From the IMG/VR virus record IMGVR_UViG_2703718815_000012, positions 1 to 46,929 of that record: a stretch of DNA of 46,929 bases, one strand, 5' to 3'. This DNA comes from a virus. Its lineage: Duplodnaviria; Heunggongvirae; Uroviricota; Caudoviricetes. Positions 1,615 through 46,929 of this stretch are shown here, one piece after another. Under the pieces are notes generated by a model. It was not told where the DNA came from. It saw nothing but the letters and a program-made list of their open reading frames with translations, and made no database searches. The stretch's first letter is position 1. The number at the start of each line of letters is the position of its first letter. The translations under genes and the position numbers were made by a program.

Positions 1615-3753
1615 TCAAATCGCTGTGGTTGTGTATGTTACTTTAGTCCCTGAGGCGGTCCCTGACTTACCTATAGTTGCAAAAGCCTCGTCGCAGGTTG
1701 CTGTGGTATTCCCTGTTAGGTTGATATGAGTTGCTCCGTAACCTCCAGTGATGATGTTGGAAGATGTTTTAACTGTTGCGCTATTGTTTATCACCACTGC
1801 TAAATCCGTCCCTGAACTTAACAGAACTGAATCCCGCAGGACTAATCTCGCGCAATTGTCAAAGTACAACCCCCTGCCAGTTCCCTGAGATACATAGTAA
1901 TTATCAACCACTAGACCAGGGCAAATTGCGGCATATAGAGCGTAGTAGTCGGTAGTAAGCCCAACATACTCAGATGAAGATATACTGCATCTGTCACCAT
2001 AGTAAATAGAATACAAGCAACCGCTCCCTCTGGAGATGTTACCGACGAGCTTGACGGCTATAGAATATGTTGAGTCCACTTCATTTCTTGCAACTGATAT
2101 GCAGACTGGTGCCAGGCATGACTGGAATACATTGTCTGATATGGTCCCACTTTGGCACCCTGAAGCCCTGAGAATGCTTAGTGGATTCTCCTGTGATACA
2201 ACGCCACCAGATGCAGGGGCGGTTGTTCCTCCACATGTATGGAATATATTAGCGTTAAAACTAAACCCATTGGCACCGTTAACTATTACAGGTCTAATTA
2301 TCCCATTAAAAAAGTTTCCATCCAACTTCAGTGTTGTCTGTGTTTGTGAGTAAGGAAGAATGTAAATCCCGTAATACCAGTCGGTAGTATTTCCCCCATA
2401 AATGTTATTATTGACTATACTTAAGCGATCATACCCACCCTTCCAGCTAATTGGTATTCTGCACCTTATAAATGTATTGTTTGATATTTGCGTATTAATG
2501 GTAACATGACTTGTACTGTCATCAGCCAAAATCCCTGAATCACTATCTTCAATGTAATTATTAACTATTCGTATATTTCTGTTGCCAGTATTATGAATGG
2601 AAATCCCACAGTATGCCGAGTTCCTAACCGTGCATCCATCAATCAGGCAGTCATAACCGTATGACCATCCTGCTGTCCCTGCTGCGTCATAGGATATAGG
2701 CAAAATATTTCCTGCGGAATCGCTAGCTTCTGAAGCATTAGGATAACTTGCAACATCGATCTGAAAAGCAGCGCTGTTGGTTCCTTCTGACCAGCAGTTA
2801 ATTACTTTCCAATACTGGCACCCAGCCCCATCCCATAAATGCCAGTGGAGATATTTGCTTCCAACATTAAACAGGGTTATGTGCCTTGCCCTGTTAGCTC
2901 CAATTCCGTTTCCTCGACCAACAGGCCCGCTAACCACTAAATTCATGAAAATGACACGCTCAGTAAATGCGGCATATGATTGGAAGGTCGCAGGCTGAAG
3001 TGCAGAGCCGTTCGTAGTATTGCTATCGTGAAATAAACAGGCTCCCTGCCCATCAACAACCAAATTGCTTCCATATAGCGTGGTATAAGTAGTTCGATAC
3101 GTTTTCCCGGGTGAGAACACGATCTTGCCGCCACCAGCTGCAATGGCAGCCTGGAAGCATGCGTAAATTGCTGCAGTATCATCGGTCCCGTTACCCACAG
3201 TTCCGTTACTATCACCCTTAGCTCCACCAGCAAATTGCGGGTCATCAACACTAAAAACGCGTGAATGCACGGAAAGAATACTGTTGAGCTCCTGCTGAAC
3301 AGTCTTTCCATCAGAGTGTTTGATTAACGATGTGCCTGGCAATGATGAACTATAGAGTTGGCCGCGTAGTGTGGCATCACCTACCGACAGCCATGCACCA
3401 ACACCAATGCCGCCAGTTGAAGTTGGTGTAGAGCCAGGAGGTACCACCTTGCCACTCACAGGAAAAGCCCCACCCCAGCGATAATACTCGCCAGTTGCCT
3501 CAAGGCGAAGAACCTCATTAGGCAAGGTGAGGATCGCACCATCTTCGAAACTATCAATTGTGATGTAGCCGAAGGCGGCCATTGTCTGCTGGGCTAACCA
3601 ACGAAGACCTTCGATTGTATAGTGCTCACCACCAAAGCGGTCTGTGTATTTCAAACCTGATGAGGTTACGAACTCGTCAATTTTCCCGGCATTAAACTTC
3701 AGATCGCGCGGTGATTCGCTTGGTACAGGCTGGTTTGTAGGTTGCGTAGCCAT
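1615..3753 (-). CDS. tailspike / tail fibre with C-terminal right-handed beta-helix (pectate-lyase-like, probable polysaccharide depolymerase)
   Basis: 712-aa ORF at distal end of tail module; Gly/Asn/Ser/Thr-rich repetitive beta-strand sequence with repeated I/V-x-N-N turns. Confidence 0.65.
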   Translation of the reverse strand: MATQPTNQPVPSESPRDLKFNAGKIDEFVTSSGLKYTDRFGGEHYTIEGLRWLAQQTMAAFGYITIDSFEDGAILTLPNEVLRLEATGEYYRWGGAFPVSGKVVPPGSTPTSTGGIGVGAWLSVGDATLRGQLYSSSLPGTSLIKHSDGKTVQQELNSILSVHSRVFSVDDPQFAGGAKGDSNGTVGNGTDDTAAIYACFQAAIAAGGGKIVFSPGKTYRTTYTTLYGSNLVVDGQGACLFHDSNTTNGSALQPATFQSYAAFTERVIFMNLVVSGPVGRGNGIGANRARHITLFNVGSKYLHWHLWDGAGCQYWKVINCWSEGTNSAAFQIDVASYPNASEASDSAGNILPISYDAAGTAGWSYGYDCLIDGCTVRNSAYCGISIHNTGNRNIRIVNNYIEDSDSGILADDSTSHVTINTQISNNTFIRCRIPISWKGGYDRLSIVNNNIYGGNTTDWYYGIYILPYSQTQTTLKLDGNFFNGIIRPVIVNGANGFSFNANIFHTCGGTTAPASGGVVSQENPLSILRASGCQSGTISDNVFQSCLAPVCISVARNEVDSTYSIAVKLVGNISRGSGCLYSIYYGDRCSISSSEYVGLTTDYYALYAAICPGLVVDNYYVSQGTGRGLYFDNCARLVLRDSVLLSSGTDLAVVINNSATVKTSSNIITGGYGATHINLTGNTTATCDEAFATIGKSGTASGTKVTYTTTAI

Positions 3754-23619: not shown

Positions 23620-23835
23620 TTACTCACTTTCTTCTGTTGACTGGTTGGCCTGCTCTGCCGGTACTGGCGTGAACTGCACGCGCTTCACATCGGCCGGTGC
23701 GAAATACAGCCACTCGCCTGAATCAGTCGCCAGCGGCACAAAGCCATTAACCAACTCAGGCTGACGTCGTGACATCTTGCCCGTGAAGGTTTCGCCTGTT
23801 TGAGTGGTTAGCGTGATTTGGTAGATGTCGGACAT
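23620..23835 (-). CDS. hypothetical protein (71 aa)
   Basis: ATG 23835 with GAGGG SD (track ORF starts at GTG 23847). Confidence 0.4.
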   Translation of the reverse strand: MSDIYQITLTTQTGETFTGKMSRRQPELVNGFVPLATDSGEWLYFAPADVKRVQFTPVPAEQANQSTEESE

Positions 23836-23858
23836 GAAGACCCTCACAAGCCACTGTT

Positions 23859-23890
23859 GAAGAAAATGCCATCAGCATGGTGATGGCATT
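23859..23890 (-). terminator. intrinsic terminator after AT-rich moron gene
   Basis: minus strand perfect 10-bp stem AATGCCATCA/TGATGGCATT, 6-nt loop, then TTCTTC; 23 nt after the stop at 23913. Confidence 0.6.
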
Positions 23891-23912
23891 ACAATTCAAT
23901 AATATGGCTGTA

Positions 23913-24497
23913 TTATTTTGCAGTTTTGTATTCAATAAACCCGTCAAAAATCAGACTATCGATGGTCATCATTTTCGTAAGTTTTTCCATAACCTCAGGA
24001 TTTTCTTGCATATCAACAAGCCATCTCCTCACGCCATTAGCTATATCATTACATAACTCAATAACATCTAATTGCAGAACACCATTAAAAGCATTCATAT
24101 GTGCATGAAGGTTTTCTCGCGCAGGGGTCGTTATCTTAAACTTCCTTAGCTTCGTTTCATCAACGCCTTCATGCAAACATGCATTCCTTAAACTCCAACA
24201 GTCTTCTGCAGTGAATGAGACTACGGGTTTTTGCGCCCTTAAGCTTTGCTTTATTCCTTCAGGCATGCTCTGAACCATTGCAGGGCTGGTGAGACTTAAA
24301 TAGTCATACATGTTATCAGCGTTATATCTTGGCTTAAGATAGCGATTAAACCAGTCCTTGTACCTCGCGCCATTTCCTTTGATTTTATCCTCTGTCGCGC
24401 CACAGATGTCAGGAAGTGATATTGCTATGAATAAAGCACCAAACCAATTCTTTTTAGACAAGCAATCATCTATTCCACTCAGCAACTGTTGCATATA
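23913..24497 (-). CDS. hypothetical protein, AT-rich moron (194 aa from ATG 24497; 220 aa if started at 24575)
   Basis: codon composition much more AT-rich than neighbours; SD AAGGTG before ATG 24497; C-terminal helical region contains RENLHAH (R-x5-H), reminiscent of a HEPN motif. Confidence 0.5.
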   Translation of the reverse strand, partial: YMQQLLSGIDDCLSKKNWFGALFIAISLPDICGATEDKIKGNGARYKDWFNRYLKPRYNADNMYDYLSLTSPAMVQSMPEGIKQSLRAQKPVVSFTAEDCWSLRNACLHEGVDETKLRKFKITTPARENLHAHMNAFNGVLQLDVIELCNDIANGVRRWLVDMQENPEVMEKLTKMMTIDSLIFDGFIEYKTAK

Positions 24498-24562
24498 TGA
24501 GCACCTTATTTTGTTGTAGACAGAGCCTACAATACAACCAGATGCAACTATTAAGAAAACCT

Positions 24563-25024
24563 TTACTTCAAGCACTGAGTGCTTAGATATTCCTGAAGAT
24601 AGCCAACCTGCTTCATCACTGTGGCGATTCTTTCTCTGAGGGTGAAATAATCCCGTTCAGCGGAGTCAGTAAGTCGGGGGCCGGAAGCATCGCCCATGCC
24701 GCTGGAGCCGGTCGTTCCGTTCGCGGGACAGTTTGCGTTGAGCTGCAGCCGCTTACGGCCAGCAATGACATCGCTATGCAGACGCTCAATGGTTTCTTTC
24801 GCATCAGCTAGTTCTCCGGTGTATTTGGCATCCAGTGCAGCGACATCACGCTGGCGGGCCTGCATGTCTTTTATGGTGGTGTTAGCCAGGCTGAGTTTCT
24901 CAGTGGCTTTATCGCGCTGGTCTTTATAAGCGATGGCGTTGTCGCGGTAGTGGTTAATCGCCCAGGCCATGGAAACGAGCAGGCAGATAACGACAGCACA
25001 GATGATTGCTGTTAATCGGCTCAT
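24563..25024 (-). CDS. Rz: i-spanin Rz
   Basis: N-terminal TM anchor then coiled-coil periplasmic domain; ATG 25024 overlaps endolysin stop; lipoprotein gene embedded in another frame. Confidence 0.8.
24616..24804 (-). CDS. Rz1: o-spanin Rz1 (outer-membrane lipoprotein) embedded in Rz
   Basis: signal peptide ending in lipobox VSGC, Pro-rich mature part, entirely inside Rz in a different frame. Confidence 0.75.
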
Positions 25025-25515
25025 TTCTGGCCCCACTCGCAAACTTCGCGCTCAATCTCGCGCCGGGTTATCAGTCCCTTCCACTGCTTGCCACCGGCAT
25101 ACGTCCAGCGTTGCAGTTCTTTGCATGCCCCCGGCACGTCTCCGGCGTTCAGCTTCTTCAGCAGCGTCGAGCTGGCAAAAGCACCAGAGCCAACGTTATA
25201 GGTGAAGGAGTAAAGCGCGGCGCGGGTTGGCTCAGGAATGCGAACCTTGATCAGCGGGTCGATAGCATTTGCCACCTTTCGCAGATCGGCCTTCAGCATG
25301 TTGTCGCACTCTTTGTCGGTGTATCGGTGACCGCGGCGAATGTCCGCTCCGGTGTGCCCATCGCAAACAGTCCAGACGCCGACCACATCCTGATAGGCGT
25401 AATAGCGCCGTCCTTCCAGCCCATCGGCATTGCCCAGCATTACTGCAGCAATGGTGATGGCTCCGGATCCGCCAACAATGGCACCCACCAGCTTATTCCT
25501 CAACGTTGGGTTCAT
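25021..25515 (-). CDS. SAR endolysin (T4-type lysozyme, P21 R-like)
   Basis: N-terminal Gly/Ala-rich signal-arrest-release TM ([20 protein letters not shown]), catalytic core LEG...[10 protein letters not shown], conserved C-terminus [13 protein letters not shown]. Confidence 0.85.
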
Positions 25516-25717
25516 CTCGGCTCCTGCTGCGGCGGTTGTCTTCGCGGATCTTGAAATAGAGATTCGTCAGATACGTCAGTACGGCAATGATGATACCCAC
25601 CAGCACGCCGATAGCGTTCCACTGCTCGGGGCTGTAGGCATTAAGCATGCCGTTTAGGATGCTCCCGGCTGAAGCGCCATAGGCAGCACCAGTGGTTATT
25701 TTTTCCATGCGATACAT
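25493..25717 (-). CDS. class II holin (pinholin S21-like) with dual-start motif
   Basis: 74-aa two-TM protein; MYRMEK N-terminus gives Met1/Met4 dual start; basic C-terminal tail [12 protein letters not shown]. Confidence 0.8.
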
Positions 25718-25816
25718 GCTCTCACCTCGCGTAGTTAGCGGGTGCTGTTCGTGTAGTGGGAAAGGCCGTCAAACACGATAGCTACGGGGCATCTGAAAGT
25801 GATTGTCTGCGGCCTG

Positions 25817-25842
25817 AATAAAAAACCCGGCGACAGGCCGGG
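25817..25842 (-). terminator. intrinsic terminator between tRNA and holin gene
   Basis: minus strand cccggc-ctgtc-gccggg followed by TTTTTTATT. Confidence 0.6.
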
Positions 25843-25896
25843 AAGATGAGGGTAAGGCAATGTCGGCTCTACGGCCTATCCCAGCTGGCGGGATTC

Positions 25897-25972
25897 TGGT
25901 GCTGATTGACGGAGTTGAACCGCCGACATCCTGCTTACAAGGCAGGCGCTCTACCTACTGAGCTAAATCAGC
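25897..25972 (-). tRNA. tRNA-Thr (anticodon UGU)
   Basis: 76-nt cloverleaf on minus strand: acceptor stem GCTGATT/AATCAGC, D-arm AGCTCAGTAGGTAGAGC, anticodon stem CCTGC/GCAGG with loop CUUGUAA, T-arm GGCGG-TTCAACT-CCGTC, encoded CCA. Confidence 0.85.
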
Positions 25973-25973
25973 C

Positions 25974-26002
25974 AATAAAAAAGCCCCGCACGATGGCGAG
26001 GC
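25974..26002 (-). terminator. intrinsic terminator immediately downstream of Q (tR'-like)
   Basis: minus strand gcctcgc-catcgt-gcggggc (one G-U pair) followed by TTTTTTATTG, ending 2 nt before the tRNA 5' end. Confidence 0.5.
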
Positions 26003-26064
26003 TGGTTATTCATTCATGTCACACACAACAATGGCAACATATACGAATTATTCTGCTCATTTGT

Positions 26065-26565
26065 TCATTGAAAAGCAAGCACGTTGTGAACATTTTTTGC
26101 AACTTTGTTCACATTATCGCGGCTGATAAAGGCATTTTGCAGCGGTTGATACAGGCAGAACAGTGCCGCGTTAAGTGTTTCCTTCACCTCCCGGCGTATG
26201 GTGGATATGCTCGGGTGCTTATACTGATTCCCGCCACGCGTCTTCATCACTCGAGGTTTGCTCACAGCGTGCTGCCAGCTGGCGATGCGGATCTCACTGG
26301 AGTTGCAGACGTAATAGGCGAAGACAACACGCCAGGCGTTCTCGTCGATATTTTTCAGGTAATGGCGCAGCACTGCGTCAATCAGCATACCGTCGTCGTC
26401 GCTACATACCGGGCGAGATGCCTGCTGCGGTTCGACGGTCGCCATAAACTTGGCAATCATGTTGATCATCGCCTTGTCTATCTTCCCGGTCTGCGACCAT
26501 GCACCCCACAACTGGAGCCACTGATCAATCCACTGATGCTGCTCGTTGGTTAATTCCAGTTTCAT
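26065..26565 (-). CDS. Q: late-gene antiterminator Q (putative)
   Basis: 166-aa ORF at end of nin region, immediately upstream of the terminator-tRNA-lysis cassette; AGAAGGAGG SD. Confidence 0.6.
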   Translation of the reverse strand: MKLELTNEQHQWIDQWLQLWGAWSQTGKIDKAMINMIAKFMATVEPQQASRPVCSDDDGMLIDAVLRHYLKNIDENAWRVVFAYYVCNSSEIRIASWQHAVSKPRVMKTRGGNQYKHPSISTIRREVKETLNAALFCLYQPLQNAFISRDNVNKVAKNVHNVLAFQ

Positions 26566-26678
26566 GCGGCCTCCTTCTTTGGCTGGTTGGTTTTGGTCTG
26601 GCTGTGCTTTGCTATTGGCGGCAGACTGGCGCGCTTAACGCTTTCGGCCTGGTATCTGGCTATCTGGTCACTGGTCAT
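26562..26678 (-). CDS. small basic protein (38 aa, below ORF-track cutoff)
   Basis: ATG overlaps stop of 26678..26890 and its TGA overlaps the Q ATG; could alternatively be only the Q leader. Confidence 0.3.
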   Translation of the reverse strand: MTSDQIARYQAESVKRASLPPIAKHSQTKTNQPKKEAA

Positions 26679-26890
26679 CAAATCGCCCTCGGCCTAGTTA
26701 CGCACACAGAAATTCGGTAATGCTCACCTGCATCAAATACGAATCCTTTTGCGTAAGTGGATAGCCCATCAGATACCGTCTTCCTTGCTAGCCTGTCAGC
26801 CGCGTGTTGTGCCTGCCTCTTGCTCATCCTGATAGCGTTAAAATCGGCGTCCGTCAGCGGGCCACCTATGCCGAAAACTGGCTTTATCAT
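26678..26890 (-). CDS. hypothetical nin-region protein (70 aa)
   Basis: ORF coupled to NinG stop by ATGA overlap. Confidence 0.45.
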   Translation of the reverse strand: MIKPVFGIGGPLTDADFNAIRMSKRQAQHAADRLARKTVSDGLSTYAKGFVFDAGEHYRISVCVTRPRAI

Positions 26891-27519
26891 GCTGCCTCCT
26901 GTTGACGGGCGCGGCGCTTCTCCAGCGCGCGGGCTTTACGGGTGAAAATGGATTTGATGCGTTGCAGGTATTGGATGTCGAACCGGCGGACGGAGTTATC
27001 GTTGTTTATCGCCTCAACTTTTTCGGCACCGATGCGCTCGATAAGGCCCTGTTCAAATGCCTTTTGCGCGCCGTCCCGATCCCGGTTGCAATAGACACAC
27101 TGGGCAGCGGTATTGTGAAGGTTGAAAGCCAGATGCGCGGCAGCGCCACGGGTGCGATAGTGTCCGCAGTCCATGGTTCCGCCAAACTTCTGCTCTGGCA
27201 GCCTGCCGCAGCTGATGCACGGCTTACCTGCATCCCTCAGACGGACGTACCGGTTGAATGCCGCCTGCGCTTCCGATCTCCACTGCGGTTTCGTTTTTAG
27301 CGCCACCTTTCTCGCTTTCAGATCCCGGCGTTCCGCGCGCTCTTTCTCTTTGCGCTCCTTGATGCGCTTAGCCGCGGCTTTAACCTTCTCCTTTTCGCGC
27401 TCCTCCATCGCGAGGATTGCGCCGTGCTCCGGACAGCACCAGCGGATCCGGATGTCGTGGAATTTCGGCACGAAGTATTCACCGCATACTTTGCACTTAC
27501 GGCGGGATGGTTTACGCAT
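26887..27519 (-). CDS. ninG: NinG/Rap-family protein
   Basis: basic Cys-rich protein (CKVCG...CPEHG, CISCG...CGHY...CVYCN) typical of NinG; ATG 27519 (MRKPSRRK) overlaps upstream stop. Confidence 0.7.
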
Positions 27520-28180
27520 GGGCACCACCTTGAACCTGTACCAGCGTGAGGTTTCCGCAGAACACGGCACCGGTATCGATGTACATCTGGTTGGCATACT
27601 TCAGGGGCTGGCGCGCTGGGGTGTGTCCGAAGATAAACAGATCAGCACCGGATATCGGCGAGACAATGCCGTCCTGAGCGTCGCTAACCCGCTCACGATT
27701 CCAGATGACCATTTCTTTCGGCACTGGCTTATCAAATTCATATTCGTTGTGCGGGTAGTCAGCGTGACAGATGACTATTTTTCGATCGGAGGTAACCAAC
27801 TCGATGATGAGTGGTAACTCAGCCGCTTTGTGAACCAGAGCCTTAGCCAGCACTTCTTTGTCATAGTCGAGATTGAAGAACCAACCGCCACCATTTACCA
27901 GCCAGTGATTGACGTTTCCATACTCCGACAGCCCATCAATCATCATCTGCTCATGGTTTCCTCGCACAGCCCGGAGCCAAGGCATAGTAATCAACTCCAG
28001 GCACTCGACGTTTTCCGCGCCGCGGTCAACAAGGTCTCCAACCGAAATCAGCAAATCACACGCAGGGTCGAACGAAACTTTTTCGAGCTCATTCATCAGC
28101 AGCGTGTAGCACCCATGCAGATCGCCGACGACGAAAATATTGCGCCATTCAGCGCCATTAATGCGTTGATACATGCTCAT
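27512..28180 (-). CDS. serine/threonine protein phosphatase (lambda PPase-like metallophosphoesterase)
   Basis: calcineurin-like motifs GDLHG, GDLVDRG, GNHE; ATG 28180 coupled to NinE stop. Confidence 0.85.
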
Positions 28181-28347
28181 GCAGATTTTCTCCTCGCCGC
28201 GAGACGCAGCCATTTCTGATCCACCAGACGGGCGGTGTAGCCCTTCAGTGTCGGGATGTCGGACGGCTTAACCGCAGGCTTACGCTGGCGGCGCGCAGGA
28301 ACGCGGAATATTTCGTTTGTGATGATGCGGGAAAGTGGAGTAGACAT
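28177..28347 (-). CDS. ninE: NinE-family protein (56 aa, below ORF-track cutoff)
   Basis: [17 protein letters not shown]...[23 protein letters not shown], coupled on both sides; C-terminus resembles lambda NinE. Confidence 0.5.
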
Positions 28348-28802
28348 CAGGCCTCCTGCTTATCGCGCAGCTGCTGGTATTCACAGCTCTGCGGAATGGT
28401 CAGGTGGCAGCCGATATTCATCGCCCAGGCTTCGACCTTGCACAGGAAGATGTACATTTCGCCAGTTTCCAGATCAGACGTATGGCGGAGGGATTGGACG
28501 GTGGTGACCTCGCCGGACACGACGTCTACACGGTCTTTGCTTTCGTAGCCGAGATAGGTGTGCTTCATCGCGTCTTTGACCCACTCAGGCGTAGCGAAGG
28601 TCTTGCCGCGGGCGATGAGGTACTCGCTGATTTCCGTGTACCACATGTGGCTGAGCGCGTTCTGTGACAGGCTGCGCTTCTCTCGCCACGGCTTAACCTG
28701 CAGGCGGAAGCACTGCCCGGCATCCAGCAATGGCTGAATCTGCTGGCCGATGGCCGCGAAGTTGCCACGATGGAGTTTGATACCGTCTACTGGCAGAGTC
28801 AT
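28347..28802 (-). CDS. ninB: NinB/Orf-family recombination mediator
   Basis: 151-aa ORF with strong SD TTAAGGAGG; first gene of nin block. Confidence 0.65.
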   Translation of the reverse strand: MTLPVDGIKLHRGNFAAIGQQIQPLLDAGQCFRLQVKPWREKRSLSQNALSHMWYTEISEYLIARGKTFATPEWVKDAMKHTYLGYESKDRVDVVSGEVTTVQSLRHTSDLETGEMYIFLCKVEAWAMNIGCHLTIPQSCEYQQLRDKQEA

Positions 28803-28992
28803 ACGGCCTCCTTAACGGAAACCGCAGAATGCAGAAAATCGCAGGTGCATTTCTGCATCTGTGACAATGTGAGGAGTTCAGATTGTGGTCGCATTTAAGT
28901 CCCCTTAAATGCGCAGAAGTCACCAATGGGTGTTCAGACCATCAGCAAAGAAAGTATGGACGGTTGATTCAACAAAATCAACTGAAGAGAAA

Positions 28993-44335: not shown

Positions 44336-45427
44336 ATGAACATTCAGATCAAAACACTATCTGTCCGAATTAAAGACAAGCACGCAGCCGTTTTGCGGCA
44401 GATGGCCTTTGAGGTCAATCAGATCTTTAATCTGGCAAACGAGATAACCAGCGTAGCATACGGCAACGCTGGCTTTTTTGGCGCGCAAAAACCGCAATGG
44501 CTATCGGCGTTTGATGTTCAGAAACCGCTCCTTAAAGAGCGAAAAGAGCGCGGGTATACCATCCCCAGCCATACCGTACAGGAAATCGCAGCAATTCACG
44601 GCAAGGCACGGAAGCAATTTAAACGCTCTCGCTTACGCTGGCGAGTCAGTGGGGGATCTCGCCGTTCGTTGGGTTGGGTGCCGTTTAAAATAGGCAGCGC
44701 TGTCTGGAAAAATGGCGCGGTGCGGTTCGCTGGCAGGATTTTTAATGTCTGGGATAGCTACGGCTTGGGAGGATTTAAATTCCGTGCTGGAAGCTTTTCA
44801 GAAGACAGCCGTGGACGCTGGTACTTCAATGTTTGCGTAGAGGTCGAAACTGTCCCATCAACGGCCACTTCCGCCGTGGGTATCGATTTAGGGCTGAAAG
44901 ACTACGCCACCCCGTCAGAAGGTGATCCGCTGATTGCCGGTAGATTCTATCGAGATCTGGAGCCTGCATTAGGAAAGGCACAGCGTGCAAACAAAAAAGC
45001 CCGTGTACGCGCCATACACGCCAAAATTAAGAACCGCCGCAAAGATGCCCTGCACAAGTACAGCACGGCGCTGGTTAACAGCCATGCGGCAATATTCGTA
45101 GGCGACGCGAGCAGTAAGAAACTGGTTAAAACCAAAATGGCAAAAAGCATTTTGGACGCTGGCTGGTTCATGCTCAAAACACAACTGGAATATAAAGCGA
45201 TTGCGCGGTCAGTGGTGTTTGAAGTGGTCAACGAAAGTTATTCCACCCAAGCTTGTTCGTGTTGCGGGGCTATCTCCGCCAACAGTCCGAAAGGTAGAGC
45301 AGGCCTGCGAATAAGAGAATGGACTTGTTGTGAGTGCGGAACCACTCATGACCGCGACGTGAACGCCGCAAAGAACATTCTCGCGGCGGGGCATCGCCGT
45401 CTAGCTGTAGGAATCCCCTTCCTTTAG
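44336..45427 (+). CDS. tnpB: TnpB (IS200/IS605 OrfB-type RuvC-like RNA-guided endonuclease)
   Basis: RuvC-I GIDLG, C-terminal zinc finger CSCCG...CCECG, RuvC-III RDVNAAKNI; ATG 44336. Confidence 0.75.
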   Translation: MNIQIKTLSVRIKDKHAAVLRQMAFEVNQIFNLANEITSVAYGNAGFFGAQKPQWLSAFDVQKPLLKERKERGYTIPSHTVQEIAAIHGKARKQFKRSRLRWRVSGGSRRSLGWVPFKIGSAVWKNGAVRFAGRIFNVWDSYGLGGFKFRAGSFSEDSRGRWYFNVCVEVETVPSTATSAVGIDLGLKDYATPSEGDPLIAGRFYRDLEPALGKAQRANKKARVRAIHAKIKNRRKDALHKYSTALVNSHAAIFVGDASSKKLVKTKMAKSILDAGWFMLKTQLEYKAIARSVVFEVVNESYSTQACSCCGAISANSPKGRAGLRIREWTCCECGTTHDRDVNAAKNILAAGHRRLAVGIPFL

Positions 45428-45551: not shown

Positions 45552-45767
45552 ATGAATGACAGCATCCTGGTTACAAGCGAAATCCTTGCGCGCTACAAAA
45601 TATCGCGCAGCACGCTCTATTTCTGGAGCACTCCCGCACGTATGCCATCCAGCTTTTCATGCCCATTCCCGAAACCAACCATCCCCGGAAATCCGAAGCG
45701 CTGGCGTGAGTCAGAAATCAAGTCATGGGAAGACAAGGTCAACTTTGCTAAAGGGGATACCCAATAA
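45552..45767 (+). CDS. AlpA-family excisionase / transcriptional regulator
   Basis: ATG 45552; ILARYKISRSTLYFW...FPKP...PKRWRESEIKSW resembles AlpA/Xis HTH family; converges on integrase. Confidence 0.6.
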   Translation: MNDSILVTSEILARYKISRSTLYFWSTPARMPSSFSCPFPKPTIPGNPKRWRESEIKSWEDKVNFAKGDTQ

Positions 45768-46929
45768 TCTCCTGCAAATGCTTCTGCCAGATATCCAGCC
45801 ATTCATGCTGATCGTCCATATAGTCATGAAGGTTGTATCTGGCCATAACCCCGCCCATCTGATGTCCGAGCAACTTTTCTATAACGTGTGGTGGAGCGCC
45901 AAGCTCGGACAGGCGCGTGGCCACCGTTCTCCGCAAATCATGTAATGACCACTCCTTCATTCCGTTCTTACGCACTACCTGCATTGAGTACGTCGAGACA
46001 AGCGTCTGCCCAGGTGGGACATCTTCTTTATCCCGGAACTGTGCTGGAGTCAGAACGTGCTTAGTGATTGATCCGCGTTGATGCTCTTGCAGAAGCCTGA
46101 CCGCAGTATCCGGCAACGCACGACGAATAGTTTTACCGGTCTTATAATCCTCTGCCGGCACAGTCCATGACCTTTCTTTGAAATCGAACCACTCCCATCT
46201 CGACTTTCTTATTTCTGCGGCGCGGCATCCGGTTAGAATCATGAACCTGATTACCAGTTGTTGAGAGGGAGGCAGAGAGAAAAGAGTATCCCACACCTGC
46301 TTTATCTCACTATCTGAAAGCCGCCTCTCCTTCATCTTCGCTGCTATACCGACATCCGATTTTCGTAACGACTCCAGTGGATTGGTTTTGATTACTCCCC
46401 TGTTGTGGCAGAACCGGAAAGCACGCTTGGTCAGAGACAGCATCTCACCTGATATGACACTCCTCCCCATTGCATCGAAAACCTCAAGCCAGTTCGCCTT
46501 CACTGTCTGGTCCACAATAGCCTTCCCTAGCCGCGGGCTAATGTGCTTTTTGAAGCTTTTACCGTTCGCATCAATTTTAATGAGCCCCTCCGGGATACAG
46601 TAATGCTTCACCCAGTACTCATAGGCCTCATCGACTGTCAGCGCTTCTATTCTTTCAGCCTTCTCCACCAGCACTTTCTGCCGGGGATCATACCCCTCGC
46701 TCAACCACGCTCTGAACTGCTGTCTTCTGTCTCTCGCCTGAGAGAGTGAAATAGTTGGATAGTCACCAATGCTTAACTGCACAGGCTTGCCCTGCCAGCG
46801 ATACCGATAGAAGAATGTGATAGAACCGGTTATGCTTAGACGCACATTCAGTCCGTTTGAATCAGAGAGAACCTCAACCTTCTCCCTGCGCTTTCCGAGC
46901 GACTTTCGTAACTTAGTATCTGTGAGCAC
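45748..46929 (-). CDS. int: tyrosine integrase (P4-type); 5' end at or just beyond window edge
   Basis: N-terminal LTDTKLRK...YRYRWQGKPVQLSIGDYP arm-type domain and C-terminal catalytic region HDLRRT...LLGH...Y; ORF runs to the last base of the window. Confidence 0.85.
   Translation of the reverse strand: MLTDTKLRKSLGKRREKVEVLSDSNGLNVRLSITGSITFFYRYRWQGKPVQLSIGDYPTISLSQARDRRQQFRAWLSEGYDPRQKVLVEKAERIEALTVDEAYEYWVKHYCIPEGLIKIDANGKSFKKHISPRLGKAIVDQTVKANWLEVFDAMGRSVISGEMLSLTKRAFRFCHNRGVIKTNPLESLRKSDVGIAAKMKERRLSDSEIKQVWDTLFSLPPSQQLVIRFMILTGCRAAEIRKSRWEWFDFKERSWTVPAEDYKTGKTIRRALPDTAVRLLQEHQRGSITKHVLTPAQFRDKEDVPPGQTLVSTYSMQVVRKNGMKEWSLHDLRRTVATRLSELGAPPHVIEKLLGHQMGGVMARYNLHDYMDDQHEWLDIWQKHLQEIIGYPL

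Follow-up and report, generated by a model that had tools for sequence, protein, structure and literature searches.

How a tRNA gene that is enclosed by two intrinsic terminators comes to be transcribed, and why it should stand at the head of a late operon, is the question raised by the region downstream of the Q gene in the 46,929 nucleotides of phage DNA analysed here (the whole of this stretch is referred to as the window). The window holds a complete lambdoid prophage, in which the integrase occupies one end and the early regions the middle, followed by the Q, lysis, terminase, head and tail genes, all of them on the minus strand. On that strand the order at the locus of interest is Q, a first terminator (t1), tRNA-Thr(UGU), a second terminator (t2), holin, endolysin and spanin. 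A preliminary description of this DNA had placed the tRNA between two terminators downstream of Q, and this was borne out by ARAGORN, Rfam and a terminator scan, the coordinates proving correct. We consider it very probable that this locus holds the cassette by which a lambdoid prophage regulates its late genes, and that the cassette is of the phage 21 (Q21) type; this reading is supported by the detailed homology of the locus to an experimentally characterised one. The arrangement as such is already known, as it is annotated in phage 21, seen in BTP1 and described for phages L and Sf6.

The tRNA-Thr gene (25897..25972, minus strand) has the anticodon UGU and an encoded CCA end, and is the sole tRNA found by ARAGORN in the whole window. 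As had been proposed, the cloverleaf was put to a dedicated tRNA finder, and ARAGORN accepted it as tRNA-Thr with anticodon TGT; the Rfam tRNA model scored the gene at 75.1 bits (gathering score 29; E 6e-16), and its minimum-free-energy fold, computed alone, is the cloverleaf. It possesses U8, A14, G18G19, U33, the T-loop and the pairs G1-C72 and C2-G71. The identity elements for the threonyl-tRNA synthetase (ThrRS) of E. coli are G1-C72, C2-G71, G35 and U36, and all of these are present, as read from GCUGAUU...AAUCAGC-A-CCA and the anticodon UGU. Among four phage tRNA-Thr genes, compensatory changes were seen in 9 of the 20 pairs. The gene is 91.5% identical to its counterparts in P1-type phages and plasmids, and about 78% identical to E. 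coli chromosomal tRNA-Thr. By all indications it is a canonical tRNA under structural selection, and one that belongs to a phage lineage.

The tRNA gene lies between Q and the lysis genes. Upstream, the Q gene (26065..26565, minus strand, stop codon 26067..26065) encodes a late antiterminator of 166 aa that belongs to the Q21 family (PF06530, E 2.7e-21) and matches, over residues 2-155, the Q21 chains of PDB 6JNX/6P18 with an E of 3.3e-45; its identity with phage 21 Q is 47-50%, and with the Q proteins of the HK639 type 87-92%. Downstream, and likewise on the minus strand, the first late gene is an S21-type class II holin (pinholin) of 74 aa (25493..25717; PF04971, E 1.5e-25), whose ORF begins about 100 nt past t2, with its start at 25717, and whose dual-start motif MYRMEKI parallels the MKSMDKI of the dual-start holin of phage 21. 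It is followed by an endolysin of the phage lysozyme type (25021..25515; PF00959, E 5e-44) and by the spanin genes with an embedded 62-aa ORF (24563..25042), which were recognised from the ORF list and RefSeq names. The segment from Q to the lysis genes shows 100% identity with a prophage carried by E. coli 23CRST004; by blastn, the window and that record are colinear only over 23653..28924, and elsewhere they are mosaic relatives. At the other side of Q, a 38-aa ORF (26562..26678, minus strand) overlaps the Q start codon in an ATGA; the identical ORF of E. coli 23CRST004 is named "PPVAKH motif-containing phage-derived small protein" by RefSeq, the motif in the window reads PPIAKH, and Pfam gave no match for this ORF. 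A CII-dependent antisense promoter in Q, comparable to paQ of phage 21, was considered and rejected, since the pattern TTGYN6TTGY has no match inside Q and its window-wide count lies below chance. Far from the cassette, beside the integrase end of the prophage, lies a gene for a TnpB or Cas12f-like RNA-guided endonuclease of 386 aa (PF07282 and PF01385; 44267..45427, plus strand).

A pR'-like promoter and a qut-like site had been predicted near the 3' end of Q, and candidates for both were found there on the minus strand. The promoter candidate is a sigma-70-like match at 26078..26050 or, alternatively, at 26074..26047, and the counterpart of the qut site is a putative tandem Q-binding element (QBE) at 26069..26054 that overlaps the Q stop codon. 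Predicted by homology, the QBE consists of QBEu AATGAACA (26069..26062) and QBEd AATGAGCA (26061..26054); the phage 21 record lists QBEu ATTGAGCA and QBEd AATGAGCA in the homologous place, so that the QBEd of the two phages is identical. The QBE motif has a single occurrence in the window (0 mismatches). In a relaxed form, as a tandem of NNTGANCA at the Q stop, it was present in 25 of the 46 Q-family loci examined, 16 of these 25 coming from the set of 39 species representatives. At the level of homology, the comparison shows that the HK639-type Q is predicted to recognise essentially the QBE of phage 21.

The probable -35 hexamer of pR', TTGCTT (26073..26078), aligns with the annotated -35 of phage 21, TTGACA, and its CTTGC core is kept in all HK639-type relatives. 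With 3 of 6 consensus matches TTGCTT is weak, which we count against our preferred explanation. For the -10 element (26047..26055), the promoter scans offer two overlapping choices, namely CAGAAT at 26055..26050, 17 bp from TTGCTT, and AATAAT at 26052..26047, 16 bp from TTTTCA. The two are indistinguishable by sequence, and either places the start at 26040-26043. The pattern CAnnAT is present at this position in all HK639-type leaders and equals the -10 of phage 21, shifted by 1 nt along with the -35. By alignment with the mapped start of phage 21, which is the A that ends TTCGCA and precedes TAAGCTG, late transcription would start in the window at 26042 (+/- 2 nt), at the A that ends TTCGTA and precedes TATGTTG, with 11 bases lying between QBEd and this A. 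TATGTTG itself (26035..26041) is a putative sigma-dependent pause element (SDPE) that resembles a -10 element and stands in register with TAAGCTG, the SDPE of phage 21; it retains T1, A2, T6 and G7 of the family consensus TAnnnTG, the positions that count in a -10 element. The window and phage 21 align without gaps, base for base, over the stretch that begins at the QBE and ends with the pause element.

The stretch around the tRNA was searched for other promoters with relaxed settings (positions 25700..26120, at least 3/6 matches per hexamer, A2 and T6 required, spacers of 15-19, consensus sigma-70 only). Upstream of the tRNA, this search yielded the overlapping pR' candidates and one match inside Q; the latter, with a 17-bp spacer, lies wholly within the gene about 50 nt further upstream of pR' and was discounted as unconserved. 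Between the putative start and the tRNA no sigma-70-like site was found under these settings, and between t2 and the holin the same sigma-70 search gave nothing convincing. A candidate tRNA promoter that had been spotted by hand, TTGCCA-17-AATGAA at 26037..26009, has a -10 element that lacks the key positions A2 and T6, falls short of the relaxed settings as well and was rejected. That late transcription must pass both terminators, as had been proposed, fits this outcome, with no further promoter-like site between the predicted start and the holin even by the relaxed settings.

From its predicted start to t1, the leader RNA would measure roughly 65 nt and fold into two hairpins. The 5' hairpin (26015..26041, minus strand) appears in the minimum-free-energy fold of the 70-nt leader with a z of -3.0 and is kept in 12 HK639-type relatives, with compensatory changes at 3 pairs. 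It starts inside the pause element; in phage 21, which has no separate hairpin, the pause element lies within the terminator stem. The second hairpin is that of t1, the putative equivalent of tR' (25974..26003, minus strand), which the terminator scan and the fold both identify as AGCCTCGC-CATCGT-GCGGGGCT (26003..25982) followed by TTTTTTATT. Its stem has 8 pairs by the scan, 6 of them G-C, and 8-9 pairs overall, and the tract TTTTTTATT provides six uninterrupted U. The last T of t1 is position 25974 and the first base of the tRNA is 25972, in agreement with the earlier statement that the tRNA begins 2 nt later. The terminator t2 (25817..25842, minus strand), also found by the scan, is made up of the hairpin CCCGGC-CTGTC-GCCGGG (25842..25826), with 6 G-C pairs, and again TTTTTTATT; its fold has -11.8 kcal/mol and a z of -3.4. 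A terminator search, which had been suggested as a check, therefore returned t1 and t2, both on the minus strand.

Terminator-like sites in the surrounding 3 kb are not above chance, however, with 5 found and 3.4 +/- 2.3 expected, and it is thus conservation that must carry the case for t1 and t2. In every HK639-type relative the t1 position is taken by a hairpin and T-tract, 60-98 nt past the QBE and sometimes with a wholly different stem, and the HK639 record itself annotates the site homologous to t1 as a terminator. For t2, the stem variants CCCGGC/GCCGGG, CCTGGC/GCCAGG, GCCAGC/GCTGGC and CCCGGT/GCCGGG show compensatory changes in 3 of the 6 pairs, with 100% of cells paired, counted on these four distinct variants of equal length only, as the divergent stems came out misaligned when all relatives were aligned with MAFFT. 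In more distant relatives the t2 stem is unrelated and is followed by the same T-tract at the same place. On this comparative evidence, t1 and t2 are real terminators.

Between the CCA end of the tRNA and t2 lies a trailer of 54 nt (25843..25896, minus strand), which comparison with relatives reveals to be conserved. Together with t2 it forms a unit of about 75 nt that follows the Arg, Asn-Thr, Asn-Thr-Arg and Met tRNAs of other prophages and also the tRNA remnant of one of them (L002, see below). The trailer may act as a signal for processing, or it may be no more than a flank for recombination. It contains a small hairpin, ATCCC...GGGAT in the window and CCCA...TGGG in relatives (loci L002, L004, L005, L009 and L011).

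The leader was also compared with the Rfam family isrJ (RF01393), and this assignment was rejected, as the 23.3 bits obtained at 25980..26052 are below the gathering threshold of 37, and the similarity is mostly that of the shared terminator hairpin. A prophage of E. coli M37H does contain a true isrJ (L005, 2319..2392; 68.7 bits), between the stop codon of a PF06323-type Q and a tRNA-Asn-Thr-Arg cluster; its terminator hairpin, AGCCTCGCCATCGTGCGGGGCT, is the same as that of t1. It would thus seem that the Salmonella Gifsy-1 "Hfq-binding sRNA" IsrJ is, for another Q family, the short leader RNA between pR' and tR'.

Comparison among the relatives points to an exchangeable slot for the tRNA. 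The breakpoints of homology are sharp: HK639 matches the window in Q, leader and t1 and ceases to match at the T-tract, and a Klebsiella phage matches from the first base of the tRNA through the lysis genes. The slot is occupied by Thr in the window, by Arg(UCU) in E. coli GN25, by Asn in HK639 (L003), by Asn-Thr in Enterobacter intestinihominis (L009), by Asn-Thr-Arg in E. coli M37H, there behind a different Q family, by Met(CAU) in Citrobacter (L011) and by only some 12 nt of a tRNA 3' end in E. coli 2021CK-01361 (L002), and its flanks are conserved, with t1 on one side and the trailer plus t2 (~75 nt) on the other. The tRNA of HK639 is not annotated in its record; the GenBank entry lists four terminators downstream of Q and no tRNA, and ARAGORN places a tRNA-Asn(GUU) right after the first annotated terminator past Q (HM208537, ~44363..44437; L003, 3211..3285). 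More widely, a tRNA on the same strand is found no more than 1.5 kb downstream of Q in 12 of the 39 Q21-family loci chosen as species representatives, 7 of these 12 having it abutting the first terminator; a tRNA after Q and a terminator is also seen in HK639, GN25, BTP1 and phage 21. Relatives have a second terminator ahead of the lysis genes whether they carry a tRNA or not. The sandwich is therefore best regarded as a tRNA dropped into a double-gated leader, and not as a device specific to the tRNA. Established directly are the anatomy of the locus, the homology that each element shows to its phage 21 counterpart, and the patterns of conservation and covariation.

From this sequence evidence we infer promoter activity, dependence on Q, excision of the tRNA and a benefit of the tRNA, and propose the following mechanism. 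Transcription would start near 26042 from pR', which overlaps the end of the Q gene. When Q is absent, RNA polymerase would pause at TATGTTG and then stop at t1, and the product would be a two-hairpin leader RNA of ~65 nt. Once Q accumulates, two Q molecules would bind the tandem AATGAACA AATGAGCA and load onto the paused polymerase. For Q21 it has been reported that a pair of protomers bound to the QBE is loaded onto the paused complex, where it builds a nozzle at the RNA exit channel that keeps terminator hairpins from forming (Yin et al., bioRxiv 10.1101/651190). The modified polymerase would then read through t1, the tRNA-Thr gene and t2 into the holin, endolysin, spanin and virion genes, and the tRNA would be cut from the long late RNA by host enzymes, with RNase P acting at the 5' end and trimming proceeding to the encoded CCA at the 3' end. 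In this scheme t2 would be a general back-up gate of the phage group that is not specific to the tRNA, and tRNA-Thr would modestly supplement the decoding of ACA, a codon whose frequency in the late genes is about double that in E. coli genes.

The usage of ACA in late genes, for which a comparison with the host had been suggested, supports such a contribution in part. Counted in ORFs called on the window itself, ACA amounts to 12.1/1000 codons and 18% of Thr codons in the late genes and to 14% of Thr codons in the early genes; in a 50-kb sample of E. coli genes it amounts to 6.3/1000 and 12% of Thr codons. The enrichment of the late genes over this sample (odds ratio 1.6, p 0.008, with the reservation that E. 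coli may not be the host) stands, but it is modest and stems mostly from one gene for a tail fibre or spike (1615..3753, minus strand), in which 24 of 65 Thr codons (37%) are ACA, far above the other late genes. This tail-fibre gene is a mosaic segment that is common to the prophage of E. coli 23CRST004. AGA, AGG and ATA are enriched more than ACA, and the phage has no tRNA for any of them. That the tRNA supplies ACA decoding in late genes is therefore plausible and weakly supported.

Other origins of the tRNA transcript have to be weighed against this mechanism. If the gene were an independently transcribed moron, with its own promoter in the leader or t1 region, expression in the lysogen and t2 as its own terminator, one would have precedents to point to: a primary start has been mapped between tR' and the tRNA genes in the Stx2 phage of strain Sakai (PMC7547250), the tRNAs of BTP1 were set aside as highly expressed in lysogens, a terminator directly 3' of the gene is typical of morons, and for phages L and Sf6 the choice between excision and an own promoter is stated as open (PMC8022706). 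The local evidence runs the other way. Only 1 base separates the T-tract of t1 from the first base of the tRNA, and the HK639-type leaders are near-identical whether they lack a tRNA (L002, L008) or are followed by one (the window, L003, L004, L009), and on these two grounds we argue against a dedicated tRNA promoter. Moreover, the relaxed search detected no sigma-70-like site from the late start to the tRNA that could serve as its own promoter, the homology breaks exactly at the 5' end of the tRNA, so that no promoter travels with it, and t2 is found in relatives that have no tRNA. An independent transcription unit thus seems to us quite improbable. Even less credible, and in our opinion extremely improbable, is that the tRNA-like sequence is a leftover, be it a fragment from an integration site or a decaying copy, with the hairpins being incidental. 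The remnant of ~12 nt of a tRNA 3' end in L002 (E. coli 2021CK-01361) does indicate that the slot can decay, but the gene in the window is a full-length canonical cloverleaf of 75 bits with the Thr identity pairs and an encoded CCA, its homologues carry compensatory changes in 9 of the 20 pairs, and the integrase lies at the far end of the window (45748..46929).

A further reading keeps the promoter of our proposed mechanism and alters the timing. With a constitutive pR' and an imperfect t1, some tRNA-Thr would be made in the lysogen, and t2 would keep these transcripts from reaching the holin; in that case the tRNA would count as a product of lysogenic conversion as well as a late product. 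The geometry of t1, tRNA, t2 and holin fits such a two-gate leak, lambdoid late promoters are constitutive in lysogens and yield short terminated RNAs (PMC7547250), and the BTP1 tRNAs are apparently highly expressed in lysogens from a cassette that has no obvious extra promoter. Against it, t1 looks strong, with a G+C-rich stem of 8-9 pairs and six uninterrupted U in TTTTTTATT, and t2 is not specific to the tRNA and has lost its T-tract in BTP1. We regard the leak as possible but rather unlikely. An extension of it, which we hold to be unlikely, is that a leaky t1 supplies the lysogen with tRNA-Thr(UGU), t2 silences the lethal holin, and the slot carries swappable cargo (Thr, Asn, Arg, Met) that is selected because it benefits the lysogen or counters host defences that target tRNAs, and not only for the translation of late genes. 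Published work on BTP1 lysogens keeps the tRNAs separate from the genes listed as highly expressed and describes the lytic operon as starting directly after the tRNAs; tRNA expression in BTP1 lysogens may mean that Q-dependent expression is not the whole story.

Beyond annotation the present findings have little reach; they provide confident labels for pR', QBE, pause element, tR' and back-up terminator in prophages of the HK639 type, a group that is widespread in Enterobacteriaceae. The wider question, which is already in the literature, is whether the tRNAs at the head of lambdoid late operons are made from antiterminated late RNA only or in lysogens as well. Since t1 and the tRNA lie too close together to accommodate a separate promoter, the cassette in the window represents a clean test case for tRNA expression.

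Among the known systems, the analogy with pR', 6S RNA and tR' of lambda that had been drawn in the preliminary description is valid, and a closer precedent, already annotated, exists in phage 21, with tRNA-Asn and tRNA-Thr in the same place. Lambda shares the logic of a constitutive late promoter, a sigma-dependent promoter-proximal pause, loading of Q and a short terminated leader, which is established knowledge (also summarised in bioRxiv 10.1101/651190), but its Q is unrelated in sequence, its leader has 194 nt and there is no tRNA in the leader. The Stx phages 933W and Sakai Sp5, in which Q is followed by pR', StxS/tR', tRNA genes, stx and the lysis genes, likewise have late-operon tRNAs downstream of tR', and their pR' is constitutive and yields a short terminated RNA (PMC7547250). 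Unlike the window, they possess a Q of another family, a leader of 258 nt and tRNAs that are separated from tR' with a mapped primary start of their own in between.

The P22-like phages L, Sf6 and BTP1 are closer, as they have a Q of the Q21 family and tRNAs, usually Asn and Thr, that directly follow the late start and terminator and precede the holin, the order in BTP1 being Q, tRNA-Asn, tRNA-Thr and then holin. In the P22-like phages, tRNAs at the 5' end of the late operon are a recurrent but optional feature, with Sf6 having Asn and Thr (PMC8022706), and whether they are cut out of the late mRNA or made from an unidentified promoter is stated there as not known (PMC8022706). These three phages differ from the window in the sequence of the QBE, which implies a different specificity of Q. 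The Q of phage L and its relatives is described as having a different DNA specificity (PMC8022706), consistent with the sequence at the QBE position of BTP1. In BTP1 (L049, 1690..1720), the leader, terminator and tRNA pair are near-identical to those of phage 21, with a different sequence at the expected QBE, and the hairpin past the tRNAs has lost its T-tract.

Prophages of the HK639 type in Enterobacter, Klebsiella, Citrobacter and E. coli have a promoter, QBE, leader and t1 that are near-identical to those of the window, a tRNA slot that starts 6-13 nt past the t1 hairpin and at least one further terminator before the lysis genes, and they differ from it in the content of the slot and in their lysis modules. 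Of the characterised systems it is phage 21 (GenBank OL657228; genome announcement PMC9119081) that provides the full counterpart. It differs from the window in that the Q proteins are only 47-50% identical and that QBEu differs at 2 of 8 positions; the -35 of the window, TTGCTT in place of TTGACA, lies 1 bp further from the QBE; the leader of the window has roughly 65 nt and a separate 5' hairpin, whereas that of phage 21 has roughly 48 nt with the pause element inside the terminator stem; and there is one tRNA in the window and two in phage 21. Both nevertheless have a Q of the same family, a tandem 8-bp QBE between -35 and -10, the same spacing of QBE, start and pause, a first tRNA directly after the T-tract of the terminator, homologous tRNA-Thr(UGU) genes and, past the tRNAs, a further hairpin with a T-tract, an S21-type pinholin and an endolysin. 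Annotated in the record of phage 21 are the pR' -35, QBEu/QBEd, -10, start, SDPE, terminator, tRNA-Asn, tRNA-Thr and S21 antiholin/holin, and this is the order in which the corresponding elements are found in the window.
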